Positions 1,291 to 10,438 of a stretch of DNA of 64,000 nt are shown here, one piece after another. Location of the stretch: the NCBI GenBank assembly GCA_963775425.1, contig CAVZJB010000011.1, positions 1,024,001-1,088,000 of the forward strand, written 5' to 3'. The stretch comes from an uncultured delta proteobacterium (GTDB lineage Bacteria; Myxococcota; UBA727; VGSZ01). Numbering within the stretch: position 1 is the first letter of the stretch; the number at the start of each line of letters is the position of its first letter. The position numbers and the translations under genes were made by a program. The notes below the pieces were generated by a model. The model was not told where the DNA came from, ran no database searches, and saw only the letters and a program-made list of their open reading frames with translations.

Positions 1291-1425
1291 CTCCCCGGAG
1301 CATGCGTCGTCGACACGCCCCCGCACAACTCGACGGCCCGCACGGGGTAGAGTCGACGCCGACCGGAGGGAGCGGCGACGCTCACCGCCTTCGCAGGCGG
1401 CGCGTCGGGCCGCAGGTGATCGGTG

Positions 1426-4400
1426 ATGAGGATTGCGACGTCGGCCATCCAGGAGCGCGATCGCGTCCTCGCGGACGCGCGGGCGCGCGTGCCTCGCCGC
1501 GGCGCGGGAAACGACGCCCGCATCGGAGACCTCCTCGACGTCGTGCACCGCGCCTTTGTCGCCACGCTCTCCGGCGCGGGTGTGCACCCGGGCACCGTCG
1601 ACGGGCTGCGCGGCAGCTTCGGGGCGGGCGCGCTCGTCGCCGGCGCGCAGGCGGTGGCCGACGCGCTGCGCGGCCTGGCCGAGAGCCTCGACGAGAGCCC
1701 GCCGGCGCTGCAGGCGGAGCGCGCGGCCATCAGCGACGCCCTCGACACGCTGCTCGGCCTGTTCGATCCCGACGGCGGCGATCTCCTCGACATCGACGTC
1801 GTCGAGGCGCGGCCGACGCTGGTGCAGGCGCTCTCGGAGCTCGCCAAGGGTCCGCCGTCGTCGCTCGAGGCCGCCGCCGTGCGCCCGCGTGCGCTCCTGC
1901 GCGTGCGCGCCGGGACCGCGGCCGCGGCGCGCGCGCTCGAGAGCGCGAGCATCGCGACGCTCGCCTCCACCGGCTTGCTCGCCCAGCCGAGCGCCCCCGA
2001 CGAGGCGCTCTTCGGCGCCGCCGGCGACGCCGCGGACGCCGTCGACCGCCTCGTGCGCGCCGCGGGCGTGCTGGCGGCGGGGGCGGGCGCGCACGCCGCG
2101 GAGCTCTGCTTCGCCGTCGTCGTCGTCGGCGACGAGCCCCCCGGGCCCGACGGCATCAGCGCCGTCGACGCCGTGGTGCGCGCGGGCGGGCTCCTCAGCG
2201 AGCCGGGGCTCCTCGCCCTCGACGCCGCCGCGTGGAGCGCCGCCGGCGCCGGCCTCGCGGCGGTGCCGGGCAAGCCGGGCATCGTCGAGCCCACGGCGGC
2301 GTTCGGGTACGACCGCTGGGAGCTGTCGACGCTGCTCGTGCGGCCGCGGCTCGTCGGCCGCGACGACGAGATTGGCCGCCTGACGCGGCTGTTGACGGAG
2401 CCGTCGGCCAACGACGCGCCGATGCTCGTGTCCATCCATGGGCCCGCGGGCATCGGCAAGACCTCGCTCGTGCGCGCCGCCCTGGCGGCGGCGGGGTTCG
2501 ACGACGACAGCGCGGCGGTCCTGTGGGGCGCGGCCGACGCGCTGTCGCCGACGCCGTACGCGGCGGTAGCGGCGATGCTGCGCGCGCTCGCCGGGGCGCC
2601 GGCGGGACTCAGCCGCGCCGCCGAGCGCGTGCGCCGCCTGCTCGAGGGGTTGGCCGCTCACCTGCCTGCGCGCGACGCGGCCGAGCTGGGCTCGCTGGTG
2701 CCCGTCGTCGTCACGCTGCTCGGCGCCGGCGACGACGACGCCACGGACCTCGACGACCGCGCGCCGCGCGCGCTCCGCACGGCGCTGCGCCGCGCGTTGC
2801 TCCTCGTCGCCGAGGGCCTGCTCGCCCGCGCGGACGACGAGCGCCCCGCCGTGTTCGTGGTGCCGGGCGCAGAGGCCGTCGACGGGCCCACGCGCGACGC
2901 GCTGGCGTTCACCGCGGCGCGCCTCGGGGGGCGCGCGCGGGTGGTGCTGTTGTCGTCGACGAAGGCGAAGCAGCCTCCGGGCTTCGAGAGCGGCTTTCGC
3001 GCGGAGCGCATGGAGCTCGGCGGGCTCTCGGCGGCGGTGGGGCGCGAGCTGTGCGGCCTGTTGCTCGATCGCCCCGGGCACGACGACGAGCTCGGCGCGC
3101 TCGTGGAGCGGGCGCGCGGCTCGCCGCTCGCGTTGATGCACGCGGTGCGCTTCGCCGTCGAGGGCGGCCTGTTGCGGCGCCGGGACAACCGCTGGGACGC
3201 CGGCGGCGTCGACGCGCGGGACATCCCGGCGCGCCTCGATCGCCTGCTGCGCGGGCGCGTCGAGCGGCTGCCGGTGCACGCCCGCCGGCTGCTGGCCGGG
3301 TGCGCGACCTTGGGGCTGACGCTGCTGCCGGCGGCGGTGGAGCTCGTCGGCGTGCGGCTCGGGCAGTCGCGGGACGAGGTGGCGCGCTCGCTGGCGTTCC
3401 TCGTCGACACGGGCTTCCTCGTGCGGACCTCGGTGCGGCCGGCGGCGCCGGTGTTCAAGGACGCCGTCGACGACGATCGGCCGCTGGCGTTCGAGCACCC
3501 GCTGTTGCGCGCGGCGGCCATCGCCGCCGTCGACGACGACGAGAAGCGCCGGCTGCACGCGTACGCCGCCGCCGCGCTCGAGGCGGTGGCGCCGTCGGGC
3601 GCGCAGGCGCTCGCGCCGGCGCTCGCGCGCCACCACCGGCTCGCGGGGAACGCCGACGACGCACGGGAGCGCCTGGCGGCGGCGGCGCGGCGCAGCGCGC
3701 GGCTCGACGACCGCCGCGGGGCGGCCGCGCTCGCGCGGGAGGGGCTCGCGCTGTGCGGCGACGATCCCGCGGCGTCGTTTCCGTTCTACCTGGAGCTGTG
3801 CGCCATCAAGGAGGACGGCTCGCGCGCGCAGCGGGACGCCCTGCGCGCGCTGGTCCGCTGCGCCGAGCGCTCCGGGGATCCGCGCCTGCGCGGCGAGGCG
3901 CTGATGCGCGTCGCCCGCTTCGACCTCGCCTCGGGCGACCTCGCGCTCGCCGAGAGCGCCGCCGCCGGCGCCGTCGCCGACCTCGCCCCCGACGTCGCTC
4001 CCGCCCTCGCCCCCGACCTCGCTGTCGCCCGCGCCCCCGCGGCGCCGCGCTCCTTGGAGGCCGGCACGCCGGACGCCCCCAGCGCGCCGCCGCGTGCGCC
4101 GCCGCCGCGCCCCCTCGAGGCCGGCGCGCCCGGGCGCAGAAAGCTCGCCCAGGCGCTGCGGCTCCTCGCGCTCGTGCGCTTCCACCGGCGCGACCTCGAG
4201 GGCGCCGCCGCGGCGCTCGCGGCGGCGCGGGCGTACACCCCGGCGAGCGACCGAAGGGGCCTCGCCGTCCTCGAGCACAACGAGGGGCTCGTGCTCCTCG
4301 AGCGCGGCGACGCGGTCGGCGCCGTCGAGCACCTCCTGGTCGCCCGCGCGCACCGCGTGGCCACCGCCGACGTCGCCGGCGAGGCCGCGTGCCTCGACGG

Positions 4401-5208
4401 CATCGCCGGCGCCTACGTCCGCCGCGGCCGCGCCGCCACCGCGCTGGCCCTCCTCGAAAACGCCGTGCGTCTGCGCGAGCGGATCGGAGACGGCGCCGGC
4501 CGCGCCTACTCGAAGCGCACCCAGGCCGACGTCCTGCTCACCGTCGGCGACGCGTCCGCCGCGTCCGCCGCCGCCGACGAAGCGCGCGCCCTCGCCAGGG
4601 AGCACGGCATCGATCGCCTCGAGGTCGGCGCCGCCCTCGCCGGCGTCCGCGCCCGCCTCGCCGCCGGCGAGGTCCAGGGCGCCGAAGCGCTCCTCGAGTC
4701 CGTCCGCCGTCGCGCGCGCGATCCGGCGGCGAGCGCCGAGGTCTGTCTGCTCGCGGCGCGCGTGCGCTTGTTGCGCGCCGCGTCGGCCACCGGCGCGGCG
4801 CGGGATCGGCTGTTGAAGACGGCGCTGTCGCGGGCGCAGGAGGCGGTCGCCCTCGGCGAGGAGCACGGCCTCGCCGCCGTCCAGGCCTGCGGCATGGCCG
4901 CCGCGGGCGAGGCCTTGCTCGAAAGCGGCGACAAGAACGGCGCGCTGACCTTTACGCAGCGCGCCGCGGAGCTCCTGGACGACGCCGGGGGCGCCCTCCC
5001 GCCCATCGAGGACGTCCTCGGCGCCTACGCCCGCGCCCTCGACGCCCTCGGCGACGAAGAGGAGGCCGCCGACGTCCGCTCCCGCGCCGCCGCGGCCCTC
5101 GACGAGCGCTGCGCCCGGCTCCCGCCCGCGGCGCGGGCCCGCTTCTGGGCGGCGCCGTCACGCGCTGCGTTGCGGGGTGAACGAGCGGACCCTGCGGGCG
5201 TGCGTTAG
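1426..5208 (+). CDS. Large STAND-type AAA ATPase with C-terminal TPR/helical repeats
   Basis: LVGRDDEI, Walker A GPAGIGKT, GSPL motif, IPARLDRLL..RVERL, FEHPLLR winged-helix motif, then TPR-like helices. The N-terminal region looks like a degenerate class III cyclase. Confidence 0.8.
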   Translation: MRIATSAIQERDRVLADARARVPRRGAGNDARIGDLLDVVHRAFVATLSGAGVHPGTVDGLRGSFGAGALVAGAQAVADALRGLAESLDESPPALQAERAAISDALDTLLGLFDPDGGDLLDIDVVEARPTLVQALSELAKGPPSSLEAAAVRPRALLRVRAGTAAAARALESASIATLASTGLLAQPSAPDEALFGAAGDAADAVDRLVRAAGVLAAGAGAHAAELCFAVVVVGDEPPGPDGISAVDAVVRAGGLLSEPGLLALDAAAWSAAGAGLAAVPGKPGIVEPTAAFGYDRWELSTLLVRPRLVGRDDEIGRLTRLLTEPSANDAPMLVSIHGPAGIGKTSLVRAALAAAGFDDDSAAVLWGAADALSPTPYAAVAAMLRALAGAPAGLSRAAERVRRLLEGLAAHLPARDAAELGSLVPVVVTLLGAGDDDATDLDDRAPRALRTALRRALLLVAEGLLARADDERPAVFVVPGAEAVDGPTRDALAFTAARLGGRARVVLLSSTKAKQPPGFESGFRAERMELGGLSAAVGRELCGLLLDRPGHDDELGALVERARGSPLALMHAVRFAVEGGLLRRRDNRWDAGGVDARDIPARLDRLLRGRVERLPVHARRLLAGCATLGLTLLPAAVELVGVRLGQSRDEVARSLAFLVDTGFLVRTSVRPAAPVFKDAVDDDRPLAFEHPLLRAAAIAAVDDDEKRRLHAYAAAALEAVAPSGAQALAPALARHHRLAGNADDARERLAAAARRSARLDDRRGAAALAREGLALCGDDPAASFPFYLELCAIKEDGSRAQRDALRALVRCAERSGDPRLRGEALMRVARFDLASGDLALAESAAAGAVADLAPDVAPALAPDLAVARAPAAPRSLEAGTPDAPSAPPRAPPPRPLEAGAPGRRKLAQALRLLALVRFHRRDLEGAAAALAAARAYTPASDRRGLAVLEHNEGLVLLERGDAVGAVEHLLVARAHRVATADVAGEAACLDGIAGAYVRRGRAATALALLENAVRLRERIGDGAGRAYSKRTQADVLLTVGDASAASAAADEARALAREHGIDRLEVGAALAGVRARLAAGEVQGAEALLESVRRRARDPAASAEVCLLAARVRLLRAASATGAARDRLLKTALSRAQEAVALGEEHGLAAVQACGMAAAGEALLESGDKNGALTFTQRAAELLDDAGGALPPIEDVLGAYARALDALGDEEEAADVRSRAAAALDERCARLPPAARARFWAAPSRAALRGERADPAGVR

Positions 5209-5313
5209 TCTCGGATGTGACGGACGCAACTTCGTGCGGATCCCGTCGACAATGTGGGTGTCGCTCCTACGTGACCCCACCATGAGAGGCCCCAGGGTGG
5301 GGCCGGAGGCAGC

Positions 5314-6330
5314 ATGCGCTTGTTTTCGATCTTCGCTCTTTTGACCCTCGGGTCGACCGCCGCCCTGGCGCAGACCACGCCGCCGGCCGAATGGACGTGC
5401 ACGGCGAGCTTCTTCGGCAGCGACGACGGCTGCGACTGCGGGTGCGGAGCGCAGGATCCGGACTGCGCGGACAACACGGTCGCGTCCTGCGAGTTCAACC
5501 AGTGTCCGAACGACACCGAGGGCCCGACGACCGCCGACGCGACGCAGTGCGCCGCCGGCACCTGCGGCGACGGCATCAAGGACAAGGGCGAGACCTGCGA
5601 TGACGGCGACGCCGCCGCGGGCGGCGGCTGCTCCGCCGACTGCCAGACCGTCGAGGACGGCTCCACCTGCACCGTCGGCGCCGGCTGCCACACGAGCAAC
5701 ACCTGTGGTGACGGCTTCAAGGACCCCGACGAGGAGTGCGACGACGGCAACGCCACCGCGAACGACGGCTGCTCCGACACCTGCGCCGTCGAGGACGGCT
5801 TCGTCTGCGGCCACCACGCGCTCGGCGGCCCCTGCCATGCCGTGGTCTGCGGCGACGGCAACAAGGAAGGCGCCGAGGAGTGCGACGACGGCAACACCGC
5901 CGACGGCGACGGCTGCTCCTCCACCTGCACCCGCGAGGTGCCCGCGGGCTGGACCTGCGACGCCAGCTTCTTTGGCGCCGACGACGGCTGCGACTGCGGC
6001 TGCGGCGCCGTCGACACCGACTGCGCCAGCCCCGCGCTTGCCGACTGCGAGTTCGGCAGCGCTTGCGGCACCATCGACCAGGTCGATCCCAACGACACCA
6101 CCCAGTGCCTCGCCGGCGGCGAGGGTGAGGGCGAGGGCGAAGGCGAAGGCGAAGGCGAAGGCGAGGGCGAAGGCGACACCGGCGGCGAAGGCGAAGGCGA
6201 AGGCGACACCGGCGGCGGCGGCTGCTCCGGCATCGGCAGCGGCCACGCCGACGGCGCGCTCCCGTGGGCCGCGCTCGGCCTCGGCCTGCTCGGCGCCGCC
6301 ACGACCGTGCGCCGCCGTCGACGGCGCTGA
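5314..6330 (+). CDS. Secreted cysteine-rich protein with DUF4215 (Myxococcus Cys-rich) repeats, GE linker and MYXO-CTERM-like anchor
   Basis: Signal peptide, GGAGG RBS, three CGDG..E.CDDG....DGCS..C repeats, two WTC.ASFFG.DDGCDCGCGA repeats, C-terminal GGGCS-TM-RRRRRR. Confidence 0.85.
   Translation: MRLFSIFALLTLGSTAALAQTTPPAEWTCTASFFGSDDGCDCGCGAQDPDCADNTVASCEFNQCPNDTEGPTTADATQCAAGTCGDGIKDKGETCDDGDAAAGGGCSADCQTVEDGSTCTVGAGCHTSNTCGDGFKDPDEECDDGNATANDGCSDTCAVEDGFVCGHHALGGPCHAVVCGDGNKEGAEECDDGNTADGDGCSSTCTREVPAGWTCDASFFGADDGCDCGCGAVDTDCASPALADCEFGSACGTIDQVDPNDTTQCLAGGEGEGEGEGEGEGEGEGEGDTGGEGEGEGDTGGGGCSGIGSGHADGALPWAALGLGLLGAATTVRRRRRR
6118..6207 (+). repeat. (GGCGAR)n hexamer repeat encoding a Gly-Glu linker
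   Basis: Visible tandem GGCGAA/GGCGAG units translating to GEGEGEGE. Confidence 0.9.
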
Positions 6331-6355
6331 GCCGAAGGGCTAATGCGGCGCGTGC

Positions 6356-7312
6356 ATGCCTCGCACGCGCCGCATCGCCCTGGTGGGACATCCGCACGTC
6401 GTCGTGGCGCGCGGAAACAACGGCGAGCCCGTGTTCCACGACGACAGTGATTACGAGGCGTACCTGGGGCTGCTCCGCGACATGGTTCGGGAGCAGCTCT
6501 TCGTGCTTTATGCCTGGTGCTTGATGAAGAGCGAGGTGCGGCTCGTCATCTCGCCGCACCGCCTCCCGCTCGCCCAGGTGGTGCAGCGTCTGCACACCGC
6601 GCACGCGCGCCGCATCAACCAGCGCACCCGCCGCTCCGGCCACCTCTTCGAGGGGCGCTTTCGCTCCATGCTCATCCCGCGCGCGCGCATCGCCGACGCC
6701 GTCCGCTGGGTGCACCTGTGGCCCGTGCGCGTGGAGCGCGTGCGGCGCGCCGAGACCTATCCGTGGTCGAGCCACCGCAGCTACGTCGCGCGCGGCGACG
6801 AGTGGGGCGACCTCGTCGACGCCTGGGCCGTCCTCGAGACCTGGGGCGCGACGCTGCCTGCCGCCCAGCGCGGCTTCGGGCGCTTCGTCGAGCAGGCGGC
6901 GCTCGACGACGACGAGCTCGGCATCCGCGAGGTGATGGCCGGCGTCGGCGGCGACCGGCAGTTCGCCGAGGACGTGCTCGCCGAGGCCGGCGTCGTGTGG
7001 CGCGGGCGGCGGCGCCCGGCGCTGCAGACGCTCGCGCGGCGCGTCTCGCTCCTCATGAACGTCCACGTCGACGACCTCGTCAGCCCCGCACGCCAGCAGG
7101 AGCTCGTCATGGCCCGCCGGCTCCTGGCGACGAGCGCCGTGCGCGAGGCGGGCAGGTCCGTCACCGAGGTCGCGGACTTCCTCAAGCGCGACAAGGGGCA
7201 GGTCTCGCGCCTGGTGGCGCAGGGCATGTCGCAGATGCGCAGCGACCCCGCGTTCCGCGCGCTCCTCGGCGCCATGAAGCAGCGCGGGAACGTCGCCGCC
7301 ACCGTCGAGTGA
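6356..7312 (+). CDS. RAYT/Y1 (IS200-like) transposase-fold protein fused to a DnaA domain IV-like HTH; catalytic residues substituted
   Basis: MPR..R, ARGNN..VF, YAWCLM, GHLFEGRF and YPWSSHRSY match RAYT family motifs. NHxH is replaced by SEVR and YIHxNP by WVHLWP. The C-terminus (DDLVSPARQQELVMARRL..SVTEVADFLKRDKGQVS) is Bac_DnaA_C-like. Confidence 0.8.
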   Translation: MPRTRRIALVGHPHVVVARGNNGEPVFHDDSDYEAYLGLLRDMVREQLFVLYAWCLMKSEVRLVISPHRLPLAQVVQRLHTAHARRINQRTRRSGHLFEGRFRSMLIPRARIADAVRWVHLWPVRVERVRRAETYPWSSHRSYVARGDEWGDLVDAWAVLETWGATLPAAQRGFGRFVEQAALDDDELGIREVMAGVGGDRQFAEDVLAEAGVVWRGRRRPALQTLARRVSLLMNVHVDDLVSPARQQELVMARRLLATSAVREAGRSVTEVADFLKRDKGQVSRLVAQGMSQMRSDPAFRALLGAMKQRGNVAATVE

Positions 7313-7363
7313 CGCCGACCTCGCGGTCGCTCCGCCGCGGCGGCGGCGGCAAACGCCTGAGAA

Positions 7364-7379
7364 TGTCGCGCGCGCGACA
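7364..7379. repeat. Perfect 16-bp palindrome TGTCGCGCGCGCGACA inside an imperfect ~95-bp inverted repeat (7317-7411)
   Basis: Read directly from the sequence; outer arms GACCTCGCG / CGCGAGGTC. Confidence 0.6.
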
Positions 7380-7431
7380 AAGCCGCCGTCGCGCGGTGTG
7401 CGCGCGAGGTCCCGCGTCCTATCGAGGACGC

Positions 7432-8676
7432 ATGCCTCCCCGCACTTCCTCCGCGCGCGCCGCCCTCGACCTCGTCATCGGCGTCTCGCTGGCGCTGGCG
7501 GCGGCGGCGTGTGCGCCCGCCGACCCGAGCGACGATCCCGCCGACTGGGACGTGGACACGTCCGTCGCCTGGGAGCCCGCCGTCAGCGCCGCGCACTTCG
7601 TGGTGCCCTCGGACGCGCTGCCCGTCGTCACCAACGCGTCCAACAACAACGTCGCCATCGCGTTCTTCGAAGGGCGCCTGTTCCTCGCGTGGCGCACCGC
7701 GCCCACGCACTGGGCGTCCGACGCCACCGAGATGCACATCGTCTCGTCGGGCGACGGCGGCGTCACCTGGCAGGACGAGGCGTCCTTCTCGCTCGGCACC
7801 GACATGCGCGAGCCGCAGCTCTTCGTCGTCGACGGCGTGCTGCACTTCACGTGCTTTCAGGCGGGCACCAACACGTTCGCGTTCGAGCCGAAGCAGAAGT
7901 GGAAGAGCCGCCGCACGAGCGACGGCGCGTGGGCGGAGCTCGAGAAGTGGGGCGACGACCCCACCGAGGTGCCCTGGGAGATCAAGGTGCGCGGGGGCCG
8001 CGCGTTCATGACCTCGTACTCGGGCAACCACTACGGCTCCGGTCCGTCCGACGTGCGCGTCCACCTGAAGGTCTCGGACGACGGCGAGCGCTGGAGCGAC
8101 GTCGGCGCCGCCGACGTCTACGCCGGGGGCTGCTCGGAGGCAGGCTTCGAGATTGACGCCGACGGCTCCGCGTGGACCGTGCTGCGCAACGAGGACGGCG
8201 ACGACACCGGCTTCGGCTCGCTCGTGTGCCACGCGCCCGCGTCCGACCTGTCGGCGTGGGACTGCCCCGCCGCCGCCGACCCCGAGCGCTACGACTCGCC
8301 GCGGATGCTCCGGCACGGCGACGACATCTACCTCGTCGCCCGCCGCGACATCGACGGCCCCTTCGACGAGGGGCGGACGGACCTCGATCTGCAGCAGCAG
8401 CGCGACGTCTACGCCGCCGACTACTGGACGCGGCCCAAGCGCACGTCGCTGTATCGCATCGACAAGGCGCAGCGGAGGGTCGTCCGCGTCATGGACCTGC
8501 CGTCCGCGGGCGACACCGCCTTCGCCTCCATCCGCCGCACGGGACCGGACTCGTTCCTCGTCGCCAACTACACCTCGCCCGTCGACGACCCCAATCGCAC
8601 GTGGCTCGAAGGCCAGGGCGCGCCCGACGGTACGAGCATCTATCTCATCCAGCTCGTCTTCACGCCCTCCGGCTGA
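7432..8676 (+). CDS. Lipoprotein with BNR/Asp-box repeats (sialidase-like beta-propeller)
   Basis: LAAAAC lipobox; Asp-box-like SSGDGGVTW and SDDGERW; GAGGA RBS. Confidence 0.65.
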   Translation: MPPRTSSARAALDLVIGVSLALAAAACAPADPSDDPADWDVDTSVAWEPAVSAAHFVVPSDALPVVTNASNNNVAIAFFEGRLFLAWRTAPTHWASDATEMHIVSSGDGGVTWQDEASFSLGTDMREPQLFVVDGVLHFTCFQAGTNTFAFEPKQKWKSRRTSDGAWAELEKWGDDPTEVPWEIKVRGGRAFMTSYSGNHYGSGPSDVRVHLKVSDDGERWSDVGAADVYAGGCSEAGFEIDADGSAWTVLRNEDGDDTGFGSLVCHAPASDLSAWDCPAAADPERYDSPRMLRHGDDIYLVARRDIDGPFDEGRTDLDLQQQRDVYAADYWTRPKRTSLYRIDKAQRRVVRVMDLPSAGDTAFASIRRTGPDSFLVANYTSPVDDPNRTWLEGQGAPDGTSIYLIQLVFTPSG

Positions 8677-8791
8677 CACGGGCGAGTGGGAGGGTGTGCC
8701 CCGACGTGCGCCGGACGCGCGCGGCCGTCGTGGAGTAGCCTCGGTGGTTCCCCGCAGGGCGGGCTCGTGCCCGCTTCGAGGAGGCGCCAGG

Positions 8792-10438
8792 ATGAACCGC
8801 ATCGCCGTCGTCGTCGGCCTCGCTCTCGCTCCGCTGTCGTCATGCGACTGCCTCGGGCCGGCGGCGGCTCCGCCGCCCCCGACGCCGCCCGCGGTGAACA
8901 CCAATCCGCTCACCACGGCGCTGCCCAGTGAGGCGCGGCGGCTGTCGCAGGCGGAGATCGATCGCACGCTGCGTGACGTGTTGAAGGAGCCGTCGCAGGC
9001 GGGGTCGCGGCTGCTCGACACCGACAAATTCACGCCCTACGACAACGACTACACCGTGCAGCAGACGTCGGCGGCGCTCGTCGACTCGCTCGAGGCGCTC
9101 TCCGTCGACGTCGCCCAGCGCACGCTCGCCAACCCCGATTCGCGCGCGGCGGTCATCCCGTGCACGCCGGTGGCGCCCGACGACGCCGACTGCTTCCGCC
9201 AGGTGGTCACCACCGTCGGCAAGCGCATGCTGCGCCGCCCGCTCGACGCCGACGAGGTGGAGACGTACATGCCGCTGCTCGCGTACGCCACCGAGGAGAG
9301 CCCGTACTACGAGACCGGGTTCGACACGGCCGTCGAGGTCCTCCTGCGCGCGTTCCTCATGGACCCCGAGTTCCTCTACCGCATCGAGGCCGGCGTCCCC
9401 ACCGGCGAGGAGGGCGTGGTGCGCCTCACGCCGTACGAGATCGCGACGCGCATGAGCTACACGCTGTGGGGCTCGGCCCCGGACGACGCCCTGCTCGCCG
9501 AGGCCGACGCGGGCCGCCTCGACGACGCCGACGCGCGCAAGGCGTCCGCCGAGCGCATGTTGCAGGACGACAAGGCCAAGGAGCAGATGGAGCGCTTCCA
9601 CGCCATGTGGCTCGGCTACCGCGCCATCCCCACGCCGCCGGACCTCGCATCGCGCTTCGCGCAGGAGACCAACGCGCTGATCGACCGCGTCGTCTTCGAC
9701 GACAAGCGCGACTACCTCGACCTCTTCACGCTCGAGGAGACCTTCGTCGACGACACGCTCGCCGACCACTACGGCCTGCCGCACCCCGCGACGTCGCCGG
9801 AGCCGGGCTGGGTGAGCCTCGAGGGCACGCAGCGCGCCGGCATCCTGTCGCAGGGCGCGGTGCTCGCGAGCTTCTCCAAGTTCGCCGACACGAGCCCCAC
9901 GCAGCGCGGGATCCTCGTGCGCAACCGCCTGCTCTGCAAAAACATCGATCCGCCCCCGCCGGGCGTGAACGTCGATCAGCCGCCGCCGCCGGACGGCGAC
10001 GTCGTGTGCAAGGTCGATCGCTACAAGACGCACACGTCGTCACCGTCGTGCAACGCCTGCCACAGCCAGATGGATCCCATCGGCTTCGGCCTCGAGAACT
10101 ACGACATCGAGGGCCGCTTCCGCGAGCACGACGACGACAACCCCGACTGCGCCATCGACGGCGTCGGCGAGCTCCCCGGCTACGGGCAGTTCTCCGGGCC
10201 CAAGGAGCTCGCGCACCTGCTCGTGGACAACTCGCTCGTGGGCCCGTGCTTCGTGAAGCAGCTCACCTCGTACGAGGCCGGCCGCCCGCTCACGGACGAC
10301 GAGCAGAAGGTCGTCAACGCCTGGAACGACGACTTCGACGCCGCAGGACACAAGCTCGATCAATTGCTCGTCGATCAGATCGGCGGGGAGCAGTTCGCCA
10401 CCAAGAGAGAGCCCGCCGACGAGGGAGGTGCGCCATGA
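8792..10438 (+). CDS. DUF1592/DUF1588/DUF1595/DUF1585-family lipoprotein with CxxCH motif
   Basis: RRLSQAEIDRTL, FLYRIE, YEIATRMSY.LW.SAPD, RAGILSQG, TSPTQRG, SCNACHSQMDPIGFGLENYD; GAGGAGG RBS. Confidence 0.85.
   Translation: MNRIAVVVGLALAPLSSCDCLGPAAAPPPPTPPAVNTNPLTTALPSEARRLSQAEIDRTLRDVLKEPSQAGSRLLDTDKFTPYDNDYTVQQTSAALVDSLEALSVDVAQRTLANPDSRAAVIPCTPVAPDDADCFRQVVTTVGKRMLRRPLDADEVETYMPLLAYATEESPYYETGFDTAVEVLLRAFLMDPEFLYRIEAGVPTGEEGVVRLTPYEIATRMSYTLWGSAPDDALLAEADAGRLDDADARKASAERMLQDDKAKEQMERFHAMWLGYRAIPTPPDLASRFAQETNALIDRVVFDDKRDYLDLFTLEETFVDDTLADHYGLPHPATSPEPGWVSLEGTQRAGILSQGAVLASFSKFADTSPTQRGILVRNRLLCKNIDPPPPGVNVDQPPPPDGDVVCKVDRYKTHTSSPSCNACHSQMDPIGFGLENYDIEGRFREHDDDNPDCAIDGVGELPGYGQFSGPKELAHLLVDNSLVGPCFVKQLTSYEAGRPLTDDEQKVVNAWNDDFDAAGHKLDQLLVDQIGGEQFATKREPADEGGAP

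Follow-up and report, generated by a model that had tools for sequence, protein, structure and literature searches.

We describe a 318-residue protein encoded by an uninterrupted open reading frame (ORF) on the forward strand, positions 6356-7312, of a 64,000-nucleotide stretch of DNA from an uncultured delta proteobacterium of the Myxococcota (hereafter the window; assembly GCA_963775425.1, contig CAVZJB010000011.1, positions 1,024,001 to 1,088,000). With a probability of about 0.7, we consider it a host protein that binds DNA sequence-specifically and without catalysis, and that descends from a TnpA_REP-like transposase of subclass 2.1. TnpA_REP proteins, or REP-associated tyrosine transposases (RAYTs; REP, repetitive extragenic palindromic sequence), are textbook domesticated bacterial transposases, and every described member is, to our knowledge, still thought to cut DNA. 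The window protein retains their fold, has all of the key catalytic positions that we aligned replaced, and belongs to a vertically inherited, single-copy clade under purifying selection, pointing to a second, catalysis-free route by which hosts use these transposases.

Fold and altered active site

Sequence signals for the two domains of the protein are weak. The Pfam family Y1_Tnp matches residues 17-104 (E 2.9e-5; 24.6 bits, slightly above the 23-bit cut-off), Bac_DnaA_C matches residues 227-284 (E 2.2e-4; 21.6 bits, under the 31.5-bit cut-off), and the NCBIfam family REP_Tyr_transpos scores 40 bits (E 2.9e-10) against a cut-off of 80 bits. Among 17 scanned members of its clade, Bac_DnaA_C matches all 17 and Y1_Tnp matches 14 at E <= 0.01, while a profile of the clade has no match at E <= 0.1 among PDB sequences. 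Structure prediction is a check that the initial annotation of the window, made from the DNA letters, had put forward. AlphaFold2, run on 17 orthologues, gives a model with a mean predicted local distance difference test (pLDDT) score of 86.8, and in Foldseek searches of the PDB the top match of its N-terminal domain is 4er8_A, the E. coli TnpA_REP with a REP hairpin (E 2.8e-5; template modelling score normalized to the target, TM(target), 0.74 over 151 columns), followed by the TnpA structures of ISDra2, IS200, and IS608. The C-terminal 90 residues match DnaA domain IV with its DnaA box (3pvp_B and 1j1v_A; TM(target) 0.88, root-mean-square deviation 1.3-1.4). The predicted architecture is a RAYT/TnpA_REP-like Y1 (HUH, histidine-hydrophobic residue-histidine) core fold followed by a DnaA-domain-IV-type helix-turn-helix (HTH), the latter corresponding to the Bac_DnaA_C extension of subclass 2.1.2.

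The residues that make this fold an enzyme are gone. The active site of E. coli TnpA_REP comprises Y115, the HuH histidines H59 and H61, N119, H123, and E161, according to its description (PMC3479197), and the signature of class 2 is given as Y---NP (PMC6006769). Canonical relatives of the window protein read x-x-Y-H-V-x-x-R-G-N, N-H-[VI]-H-L, and R-Y-I-H-L-N-P-V-R at the three motifs; the window protein reads H-P-H-V-V-V-A-R-G-N, S-E-V-R-L (residues 59-63), and R-W-V-H-L-W-P-V-R (W-V-H-L-W-P-V being residues 118-124). Four positions are thereby replaced: both metal-binding histidines (H-x-H to E-V-R, residues 60-62), the nucleophilic tyrosine (to Trp), and the asparagine four residues after it (to Trp), leaving neither a HuH motif nor a tyrosine in the class-2 context (W-V-H-L-W-P, residues 118-123).

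These replacements are a property of the clade. We aligned the best 120 matches of the protein search, 118 of which belong to the clade and two of which are canonical (P0119 and P0120). The HuH stretch, present in 116 clade members, is E-[VIL]-R in 111, A-[VI]-R in five, and H-x-H in none. At the tyrosine position the 118 members have W (52), S (42), N (8), A (6), G (4), Y (3), D (2), or T (1), and the +4 position holds W in 112/118 and N in 0/118. The tyrosine position is thus too variable across orthologues to be a nucleophile, and the Arg that invariably occupies the second histidine position cannot hold a metal. Most likely, judging by these residues, the window protein can no longer cut and rejoin single-stranded DNA (ssDNA) through a phosphotyrosine intermediate.

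An active nuclease or recombinase with a rebuilt site, in which Glu60 and His120, say, bound the metal while a different Tyr or Ser attacked the DNA, would also account for the intact fold and for the selection acting on it. Conservation is seen at His120 and Tyr143, and the old tyrosine position is Ser in 42/118 members and Tyr in 3/118. We regard such an enzyme as improbable: W, S, N, A, G, or D at one and the same position is unlike a catalytic residue, the second histidine is Arg in 116/116 and would bind no metal, the asparagine ligand is Trp in 112/118, and His120 and Tyr143 are conserved in canonical relatives too and so are not newly recruited.

The alignments agree with the initial annotation, which had listed the HUH pair (NHVH to SEVR), the Tyr (YIHLNP to WVHLWP), and the N-terminal His (YHV to HVV) as substituted. 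Its account of the gene itself also holds: the ORF is full length and uninterrupted, with a start codon backed by an M/V-P-R-x-R-R start common to the orthologues; codon use is host-like, the G+C content at third codon positions (GC3) being 0.953 as compared with 0.917-0.959 in five neighboring genes; and the structural RAYT motifs ARGNN, CLM, GHLFEGRF, and YPWSS are all kept.

Origin, inheritance, and selection

Searching 1.84 billion representative proteins with a profile made from 17 orthologues, we obtained 31,700 relatives at E <= 1e-3; full-length clade members score at least 283 bits, clearly set off from the next protein at 192 bits. Nearly all of the 138 representatives listed from outside the clade have the three canonical motifs, and at least six of them (P0148, P0154, P0156, P0200, P0211, and P0238) lack one or both histidines. 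We then placed motif status on a tree of 74 sequences, of which 20 are dead, seven degenerate, and 47 canonical, the canonical ones being a partial sample (the first 20, 25 random full-length proteins, P0119, and P0120). All 20 dead sequences, together with the degenerate P0144, are split from all 47 canonical ones by a branch with a support of 100 in the Shimodaira-Hasegawa-like approximate likelihood ratio test (SH-aLRT). The remaining six degenerate sequences, which lack one or both His and/or the Tyr, fall in three separate places inside the canonical part (P0154, P0156, P0200, and P0238; P0211; P0148). This placement implies one loss event for the window clade and no fewer than three additional, independent losses in other parts of the tree; on the sequences sampled, motif loss recurs in the wider family.

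The nearest relatives outside the clade share the domain composition of the window protein. In their survey, Quentin et al. 2018 (PMC6006769) report a Bac_DnaA_C extension in subclass 2.1.2 of the TnpA_REP-like proteins and treat subclass 2.1 as equivalent to the TIRYT described by Di Nocera et al. 2013 (PMC3733652); we placed the relatives in subclass 2.1.2 by their architecture, apart from the authors' own classification. They have in common with the window protein the Y1/HUH core, a helical middle, the C-terminal Bac_DnaA_C-type HTH, a length of ~310-320 residues, and the RGN, GHLFxGRF, and YPWSSH motifs, and they are its nearest relatives by sequence (192 bits downwards). They differ in keeping YHV, N-H-x-H-L, and R-Y-I-H-L-N-P-V, none of which occurs in the window clade; in the terminal inverted repeats that, according to the same survey, flank TIRYT genes and that are missing at the window gene; and in that the window clade is order-wide, vertical, and set on a long, fully supported branch. 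Because these nearest relatives are canonical subclass 2.1 (TIRYT-like) proteins, the HTH is ancestral and not a new fusion. The initial annotation had presented the protein as a Y1 transposase fused to a DnaA-type HTH: the HTH is indeed present, and the novelty of the fusion falls away, the combination being that of TnpA_REP subclass 2.1.2/TIRYT as far as PMC6006769 describes it. The protein is best filed as a putative catalysis-free derivative of TnpA_REP subclass 2.1, related to that subclass but failing its defining catalytic features.

A similar mixture of likeness and difference is seen with the E. coli TnpA_REP/RAYT (4ER8; PMC3479197), which is the best structural match of the N-terminal domain and is likewise a single-copy domesticated gene. 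Unlike the window protein, it is described there as an active nuclease, flanked by REPs (the REPtron), and without an HTH domain, and the two proteins have 16% sequence identity.

The window gene is present in a single copy in its 8.26-Mb genome (G000), where we found two other, weak Y1_Tnp matches, no Bac_DnaA_C protein besides DnaA, and no second protein combining Y1 with DnaA_C. A profile search of 401 Myxococcota genomes gave matches at E <= 1e-5 in 120 of them, a count that is the only one to include the unpublished genome G195. Within the order to which the window belongs, a match at E <= 1e-84 is seen in 28 of the 37 other genomes; in 27 of these it extends over nearly the full length, and almost all carry one copy. 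Carriers include a family (f2) with genomes of 1.3-3.4 Mb, and genomes as small as 1.3-2.5 Mb keep the gene. Outside the order, 89/363 genomes match over the N-terminal part only (best E 1.2e-39, profile positions 1-159); inside it, a second, weaker N-terminal match is confined to three genomes (G089, G099, and G145). Two Y1_Tnp-like genes elsewhere in G000 can be described separately: one on contig C18 at 22.8 kb (L002/L044) keeps D-H-V-H-L, has Cys at the expected Tyr, and is preceded by a repetitive peptide-coding stretch, and one on contig C3 at 259.6 kb (L045) keeps H-V-H in an otherwise degenerate-looking sequence. Three genomes of the same order that have no match to the gene (G104, G064, and G094) are only 0.3-0.6 Mb in size, which is odd for Myxococcota, and are rated 87-91% complete.

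In a gene tree that comprises 19 orthologues and takes six canonical proteins as its root, the taxonomic families f1 and f2 are each monophyletic (SH-aLRT 95 and 87, respectively), and the family labels require six changes, the minimum possible. GC content among the orthologous loci varies from 32 to 75%. Six pairs have an unsaturated dS (0.27-0.92); among these, the ratio of nonsynonymous to synonymous substitution rates (dN/dS; Nei-Gojobori method) is 0.059-0.119, and by domain it is 0.06-0.17 in the dead Y1 domain, 0.04-0.12 in the middle region, and 0.06-0.11 in the HTH. The gene is vertically inherited, with purifying selection on all three domains. TGA recoding, which we considered for six small-genome orthologues with one TGA inside the profile match, was rejected: the TGA is the natural stop, beyond which the profile extends.

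A decaying, non-functional transposase remnant would explain the loss of all catalytic motifs, and Quentin et al. set aside sequences without the core motifs as probably non-functional, analyzing only HuH- and Y-bearing proteins (PMC6006769). The selection and conservation data refute this reading, to which we assign next to no probability: every orthologue read is full length and free of stops, dN/dS is 0.06-0.12, the gene is conserved from 32% to 75% GC, and its tree follows the taxonomy. The initial annotation had offered a lone decaying allele with HUH- and Tyr-bearing closest homologues as what would overturn its proposal, and the closest homologues turn out to share the loss. What it had proposed to test for is found instead, namely a HUH/Tyr-less clade (0/116 with H-x-H, on a branch with SH-aLRT 100) that is inherited along the taxonomic families, under purifying selection, and, at its low-GC loci, syntenic, with a recurring gene order and housekeeping neighbors.

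Proposed DNA recognition and role

The HTH domain resembles DnaA in fold and departs from it in the segment that contacts the bases. It has the same fold as DnaA domain IV (1J1V, 3PVP) and can be aligned in sequence with the host's genuine DnaA, encoded on contig C14 (L042; 26% identity to residues 220-309, E 0.002); a sequence search with a canonical relative likewise retrieves structures of DnaA domain IV (E 7.9e-4). Unlike DnaA, the window protein has no AAA+ domain (domain III), and the base-contacting RDHTTV segment is RDKGQVS, or RDK[AG]Q[VI]S across the clade, so that it has the domain-IV fold only and is not a DnaA. Thirteen residues (R246, V251, A253, R254, R255, K280, Q282, S284, R285, L286, V287, Q289, and G290) are identical in 116/116 gap-free members of the clade, and the recognition-helix positions among them vary in the 138 listed relatives outside it. 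Over residues 276-290 the mean frequency of the top residue is 0.87 in the clade as compared with 0.41 in those relatives; for the catalytic helix, the corresponding values are 0.78 and 0.83. This pattern suggests that the protein has a DNA target other than the DnaA box, one that stays the same throughout the order.

The ancestor was a TnpA_REP-like (RAYT/TIRYT, subclass 2.1) ssDNA transposase that already possessed the C-terminal DnaA-type HTH, and its active site was dismantled in the ancestor of one Myxococcota order, the histidines becoming Glu and Arg, the Tyr being lost, and the Asn becoming Trp, with the fold and both DNA-binding modules retained. We propose that the HTH would dock on a conserved double-stranded site other than the DnaA box, that the dead HUH domain may hold a hairpin or a single strand or else serve as a scaffold, and that the protein could thereby control transcription or mark a site on the chromosome. 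The initial annotation had likewise proposed an exapted DNA-binding regulator. The conserved, catalytically dead clade behind that proposal stands, on the evidence of selection and vertical inheritance; the term regulator goes further than our searches, which returned neither a DNA target nor a conserved partner.

Modulation of replication initiation, with the HTH at or near the replication origin (oriC) and the dead HUH domain holding the unwound strand, is a related idea that we consider unlikely, if slightly less so than the other alternatives. The match of the C-terminal domain to DnaA domain IV on a DnaA box (TM 0.88), the ssDNA binding of HUH domains (PMC3479197), and an order-wide, single-copy gene would all suit it. 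The DnaA box is an unlikely target, however, given RDK[AG]Q[VI]S where DnaA has RDHTTV, and we saw no proximity to dnaA/oriC in the two genomes compared: the gene lies 651 kb from dnaA (26% of 2.515 Mb) in the single-contig genome G042, and the two are on different contigs in G000.

The gene lacks the ends of a mobile element. Around 5200-8800 we see no inverted repeats that are credible (the best arms are GC-rich matches with 70-78% complementarity) and no REP arrays flanking the gene, in keeping with the absence of insertion sequence (IS) ends and REP arrays remarked on in the initial annotation; the terminal inverted repeats and REP hairpins of TnpA_REP/RAYT-like transposases are thus missing. 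The traits of IS200/IS605 elements (multiple copies, subterminal hairpins, and often a tnpB partner) are missing as well, the gene being single copy with a STAND NTPase, a DUF4215 protein, and an uncharacterized protein as its neighbors. Two candidate sites were rejected. A perfect 16-bp GC-rich palindrome at 7364-7379, in the 119-nt gap 3' of the gene, occurs once in the genome, and the gap itself is missing from the closest relatives, in which 4-8 nt separate the stop from the following gene (loci L003 and L004). A dispersed repeat of ~30 bp, whose 17-nt core has 329 copies at <=2 mismatches in G000 as compared with 47 for a reversed control, is found both singly and in short direct tandem arrays whose period is 29-31 bp. 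It adjoins no Y1 gene, which disqualifies it as a cognate REP, and is specific to G000 among 38 genomes of the order, so that it cannot be an order-wide conserved target.

Truncated or inactive transposase derivatives act as inhibitors in other elements. A dead copy of this kind could repress transposition or REP proliferation by competing for the terminal repeats of active subclass-2.1 transposases, which would explain why the DNA-binding parts are kept, but several observations make this a doubtful role with a low probability: G000 has no canonical paralogue with Y1 and DnaA_C, a second N-terminal match, and a weaker one, is seen in only the three order genomes named above, streamlined genomes of 1.3-2.5 Mb keep the gene, and the sole abundant dispersed repeat of G000 is genome-specific and does not follow the gene. 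Carriers of the gene are largely without an active relative or a cognate repeat already, which counts towards refuting such a role.

Several findings weigh against a sequence-specific host DNA binder. We searched 9- and 10-mers, with one mismatch allowed, in the 250 nt upstream and 200 nt downstream of 27 orthologous loci; upstream, no k-mer rises above shuffled controls, and no DNA target emerges. (Downstream, one 10-mer is found in 10/27 loci, probably within the start of a conserved alanine racemase gene.) We also found no partner gene conserved across the whole clade, and a look-up of public sequencing runs, RNA included, listed none. Nine of the 37 order genomes are without a strong match (three of 0.3-0.6 Mb, two of 1.4-1.5 Mb, two that are incomplete, and two with weak matches); seven of these have no match and two have weak ones only (E 3.7e-6 and 1.1e-10), so the gene is not indispensable. 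The loss of catalysis is predicted from residues, and a Tyr is still present at the nucleophile position in 3/118 clade members. Finally, distant high-GC pairs have dN/dS values of ~0.3, although dS is compressed by extreme GC3 in these pairs and makes the values unreliable, so we do not rely on them.

The failure to find a DNA target, together with selection on an N-terminal domain that has no catalytic function, might also be explained if the dead HUH domain, which resembles an RNA recognition motif, had a non-DNA role in binding RNA or protein, with the HTH as an anchor or repurposed. The DnaA-type recognition helix and its flanks are the most conserved segment of the protein, for which a fixed double-stranded DNA target is the simplest explanation, and we give the non-DNA role little credence.

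At least one HuH/Y-less group, of a kind that the main survey of the family discarded as probable pseudogenes (PMC6006769), is an old, vertical, and constrained gene. We found no published account of conserved HuH/Y-less members in the full-text literature, a search whose coverage excludes most subscription journals. More tentatively, and with the odds somewhat against it, the window protein may be a core, order-wide Myxococcota DNA-binding factor that reads one conserved site or a small regulon across 32-75% GC, and, together with the independent losses elsewhere, may mark subclass 2.1 as a recurrent source of host DNA-binding proteins. Subclass 2.1 would then be the transposase-side counterpart of the TldR proteins, nuclease-dead repressors derived from TnpB (PMC13622181). 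The parallel would be one of analogy: a nuclease of IS200/IS605-type elements loses catalysis and is kept as a DNA-binding host factor. TldRs derive, however, from a RuvC-type RNA-guided nuclease and not from a HUH/Y1 transposase, the guide RNA has no equivalent in the window case, and TldRs are described there as repressors, whereas the window protein is a putative DNA binder. With 318 residues, a well-predicted fold, and an invariant recognition helix, the protein is a concrete experimental target, and its binding sites would tell what the host has gained.

Genomic context and other features

The settings of the gene are housekeeping or ordinary chromosomal ones. At most of ten low-GC loci, the order is a gene for a class-I W/Y-type aminoacyl-tRNA synthetase, a divergent acyltransferase gene, the orthologue, and alanine racemase, beyond which comes one of two sets of genes, FtsK with an FAD oxidase or IMPDH/GMP reductase with HMG-CoA reductase and a GHMP kinase. 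High-GC relatives have a membrane protein upstream, and an NAD-binding protein, a CHAD protein, and polyphosphate kinase downstream. The STAND gene that precedes the window gene (Table 1) is likewise the immediate upstream neighbor of the orthologue in L023, and it is close to the orthologue in L003; the gene downstream of the window gene also comes after the orthologue in L003 and L004, at a distance of 4-8 nt. PADLOC and PHROGs gave no matches to defense or phage families, and the STAND NTPase likewise has no PADLOC match.

Table 1. Positions in the window of the gene, its domains and motifs, its neighbors, and the dispersed repeat
Feature	Position	Strand	Basis or remark
Whole gene, predicted dead RAYT-like protein with DnaA-domain-IV-type HTH, 318 aa	6356..7312	+	ORF, single copy, orthologues, AlphaFold2 model
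N-terminal Y1/HUH-fold domain, aa 1-145, predicted catalytically disabled	6356..6790	+	Pfam Y1_Tnp, Foldseek 4er8_A, dN/dS 0.06-0.17
E60-V61-R62 at the metal-binding H-u-H site	6533..6541	+	alignments
W118-V-H-L-W122-P-V at the Y-I-H-L-N-P-V site; Tyr and Asn(+4) both replaced	6707..6727	+	alignment
Middle helical region, aa 146-219, also in canonical subclass-2.1-like relatives	6791..7012	+	alignment, dN/dS 0.04-0.12
C-terminal DnaA-domain-IV-like HTH domain, aa 220-310	7013..7285	+	Foldseek 3pvp_B and 1j1v_A, Bac_DnaA_C 17/17, 26% identity to host DnaA domain IV
Presumed recognition helix R-D-K-G-Q-V-S-R-L-V-A-Q-G, aa 278-290	7187..7225	+	alignment to DnaA RDHTTV segment, clade invariance
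STAND NTPase, 1261 aa (AAA_16, nSTAND1, TPR_12)	1423-5208		upstream of gene
DUF4215 cysteine-rich secreted protein	5314-6330		upstream of gene
Uncharacterized 414-aa protein	7432-8676		downstream of gene
Dispersed repeat, 17-nt core	1360-1376	-	
Dispersed repeat, 17-nt core	17270	-	
Dispersed repeat, 17-nt core	20918	-	
Dispersed repeat, 17-nt core	37935	+	

Three further observations concern the genomes and contigs analyzed. Repeats coding for (Gly-Glu)n are the most abundant 16-mers in G000, with >300 copies, and those at 6120-6215 of the window make up the linker of the DUF4215 protein. Outside the window, contig C12 of G000 carries, from ~96,500, a CRISPR-like array of 105 repeats with a period of 61 bp and a palindromic repeat core. 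A contig labeled as a Methanobacteriota archaeon (L014) encodes an orthologue of the window protein at 45% identity in the Myxococcota gene order (aminoacyl-tRNA synthetase gene, acyltransferase, orthologue, and alanine racemase), and is probably mis-binned.

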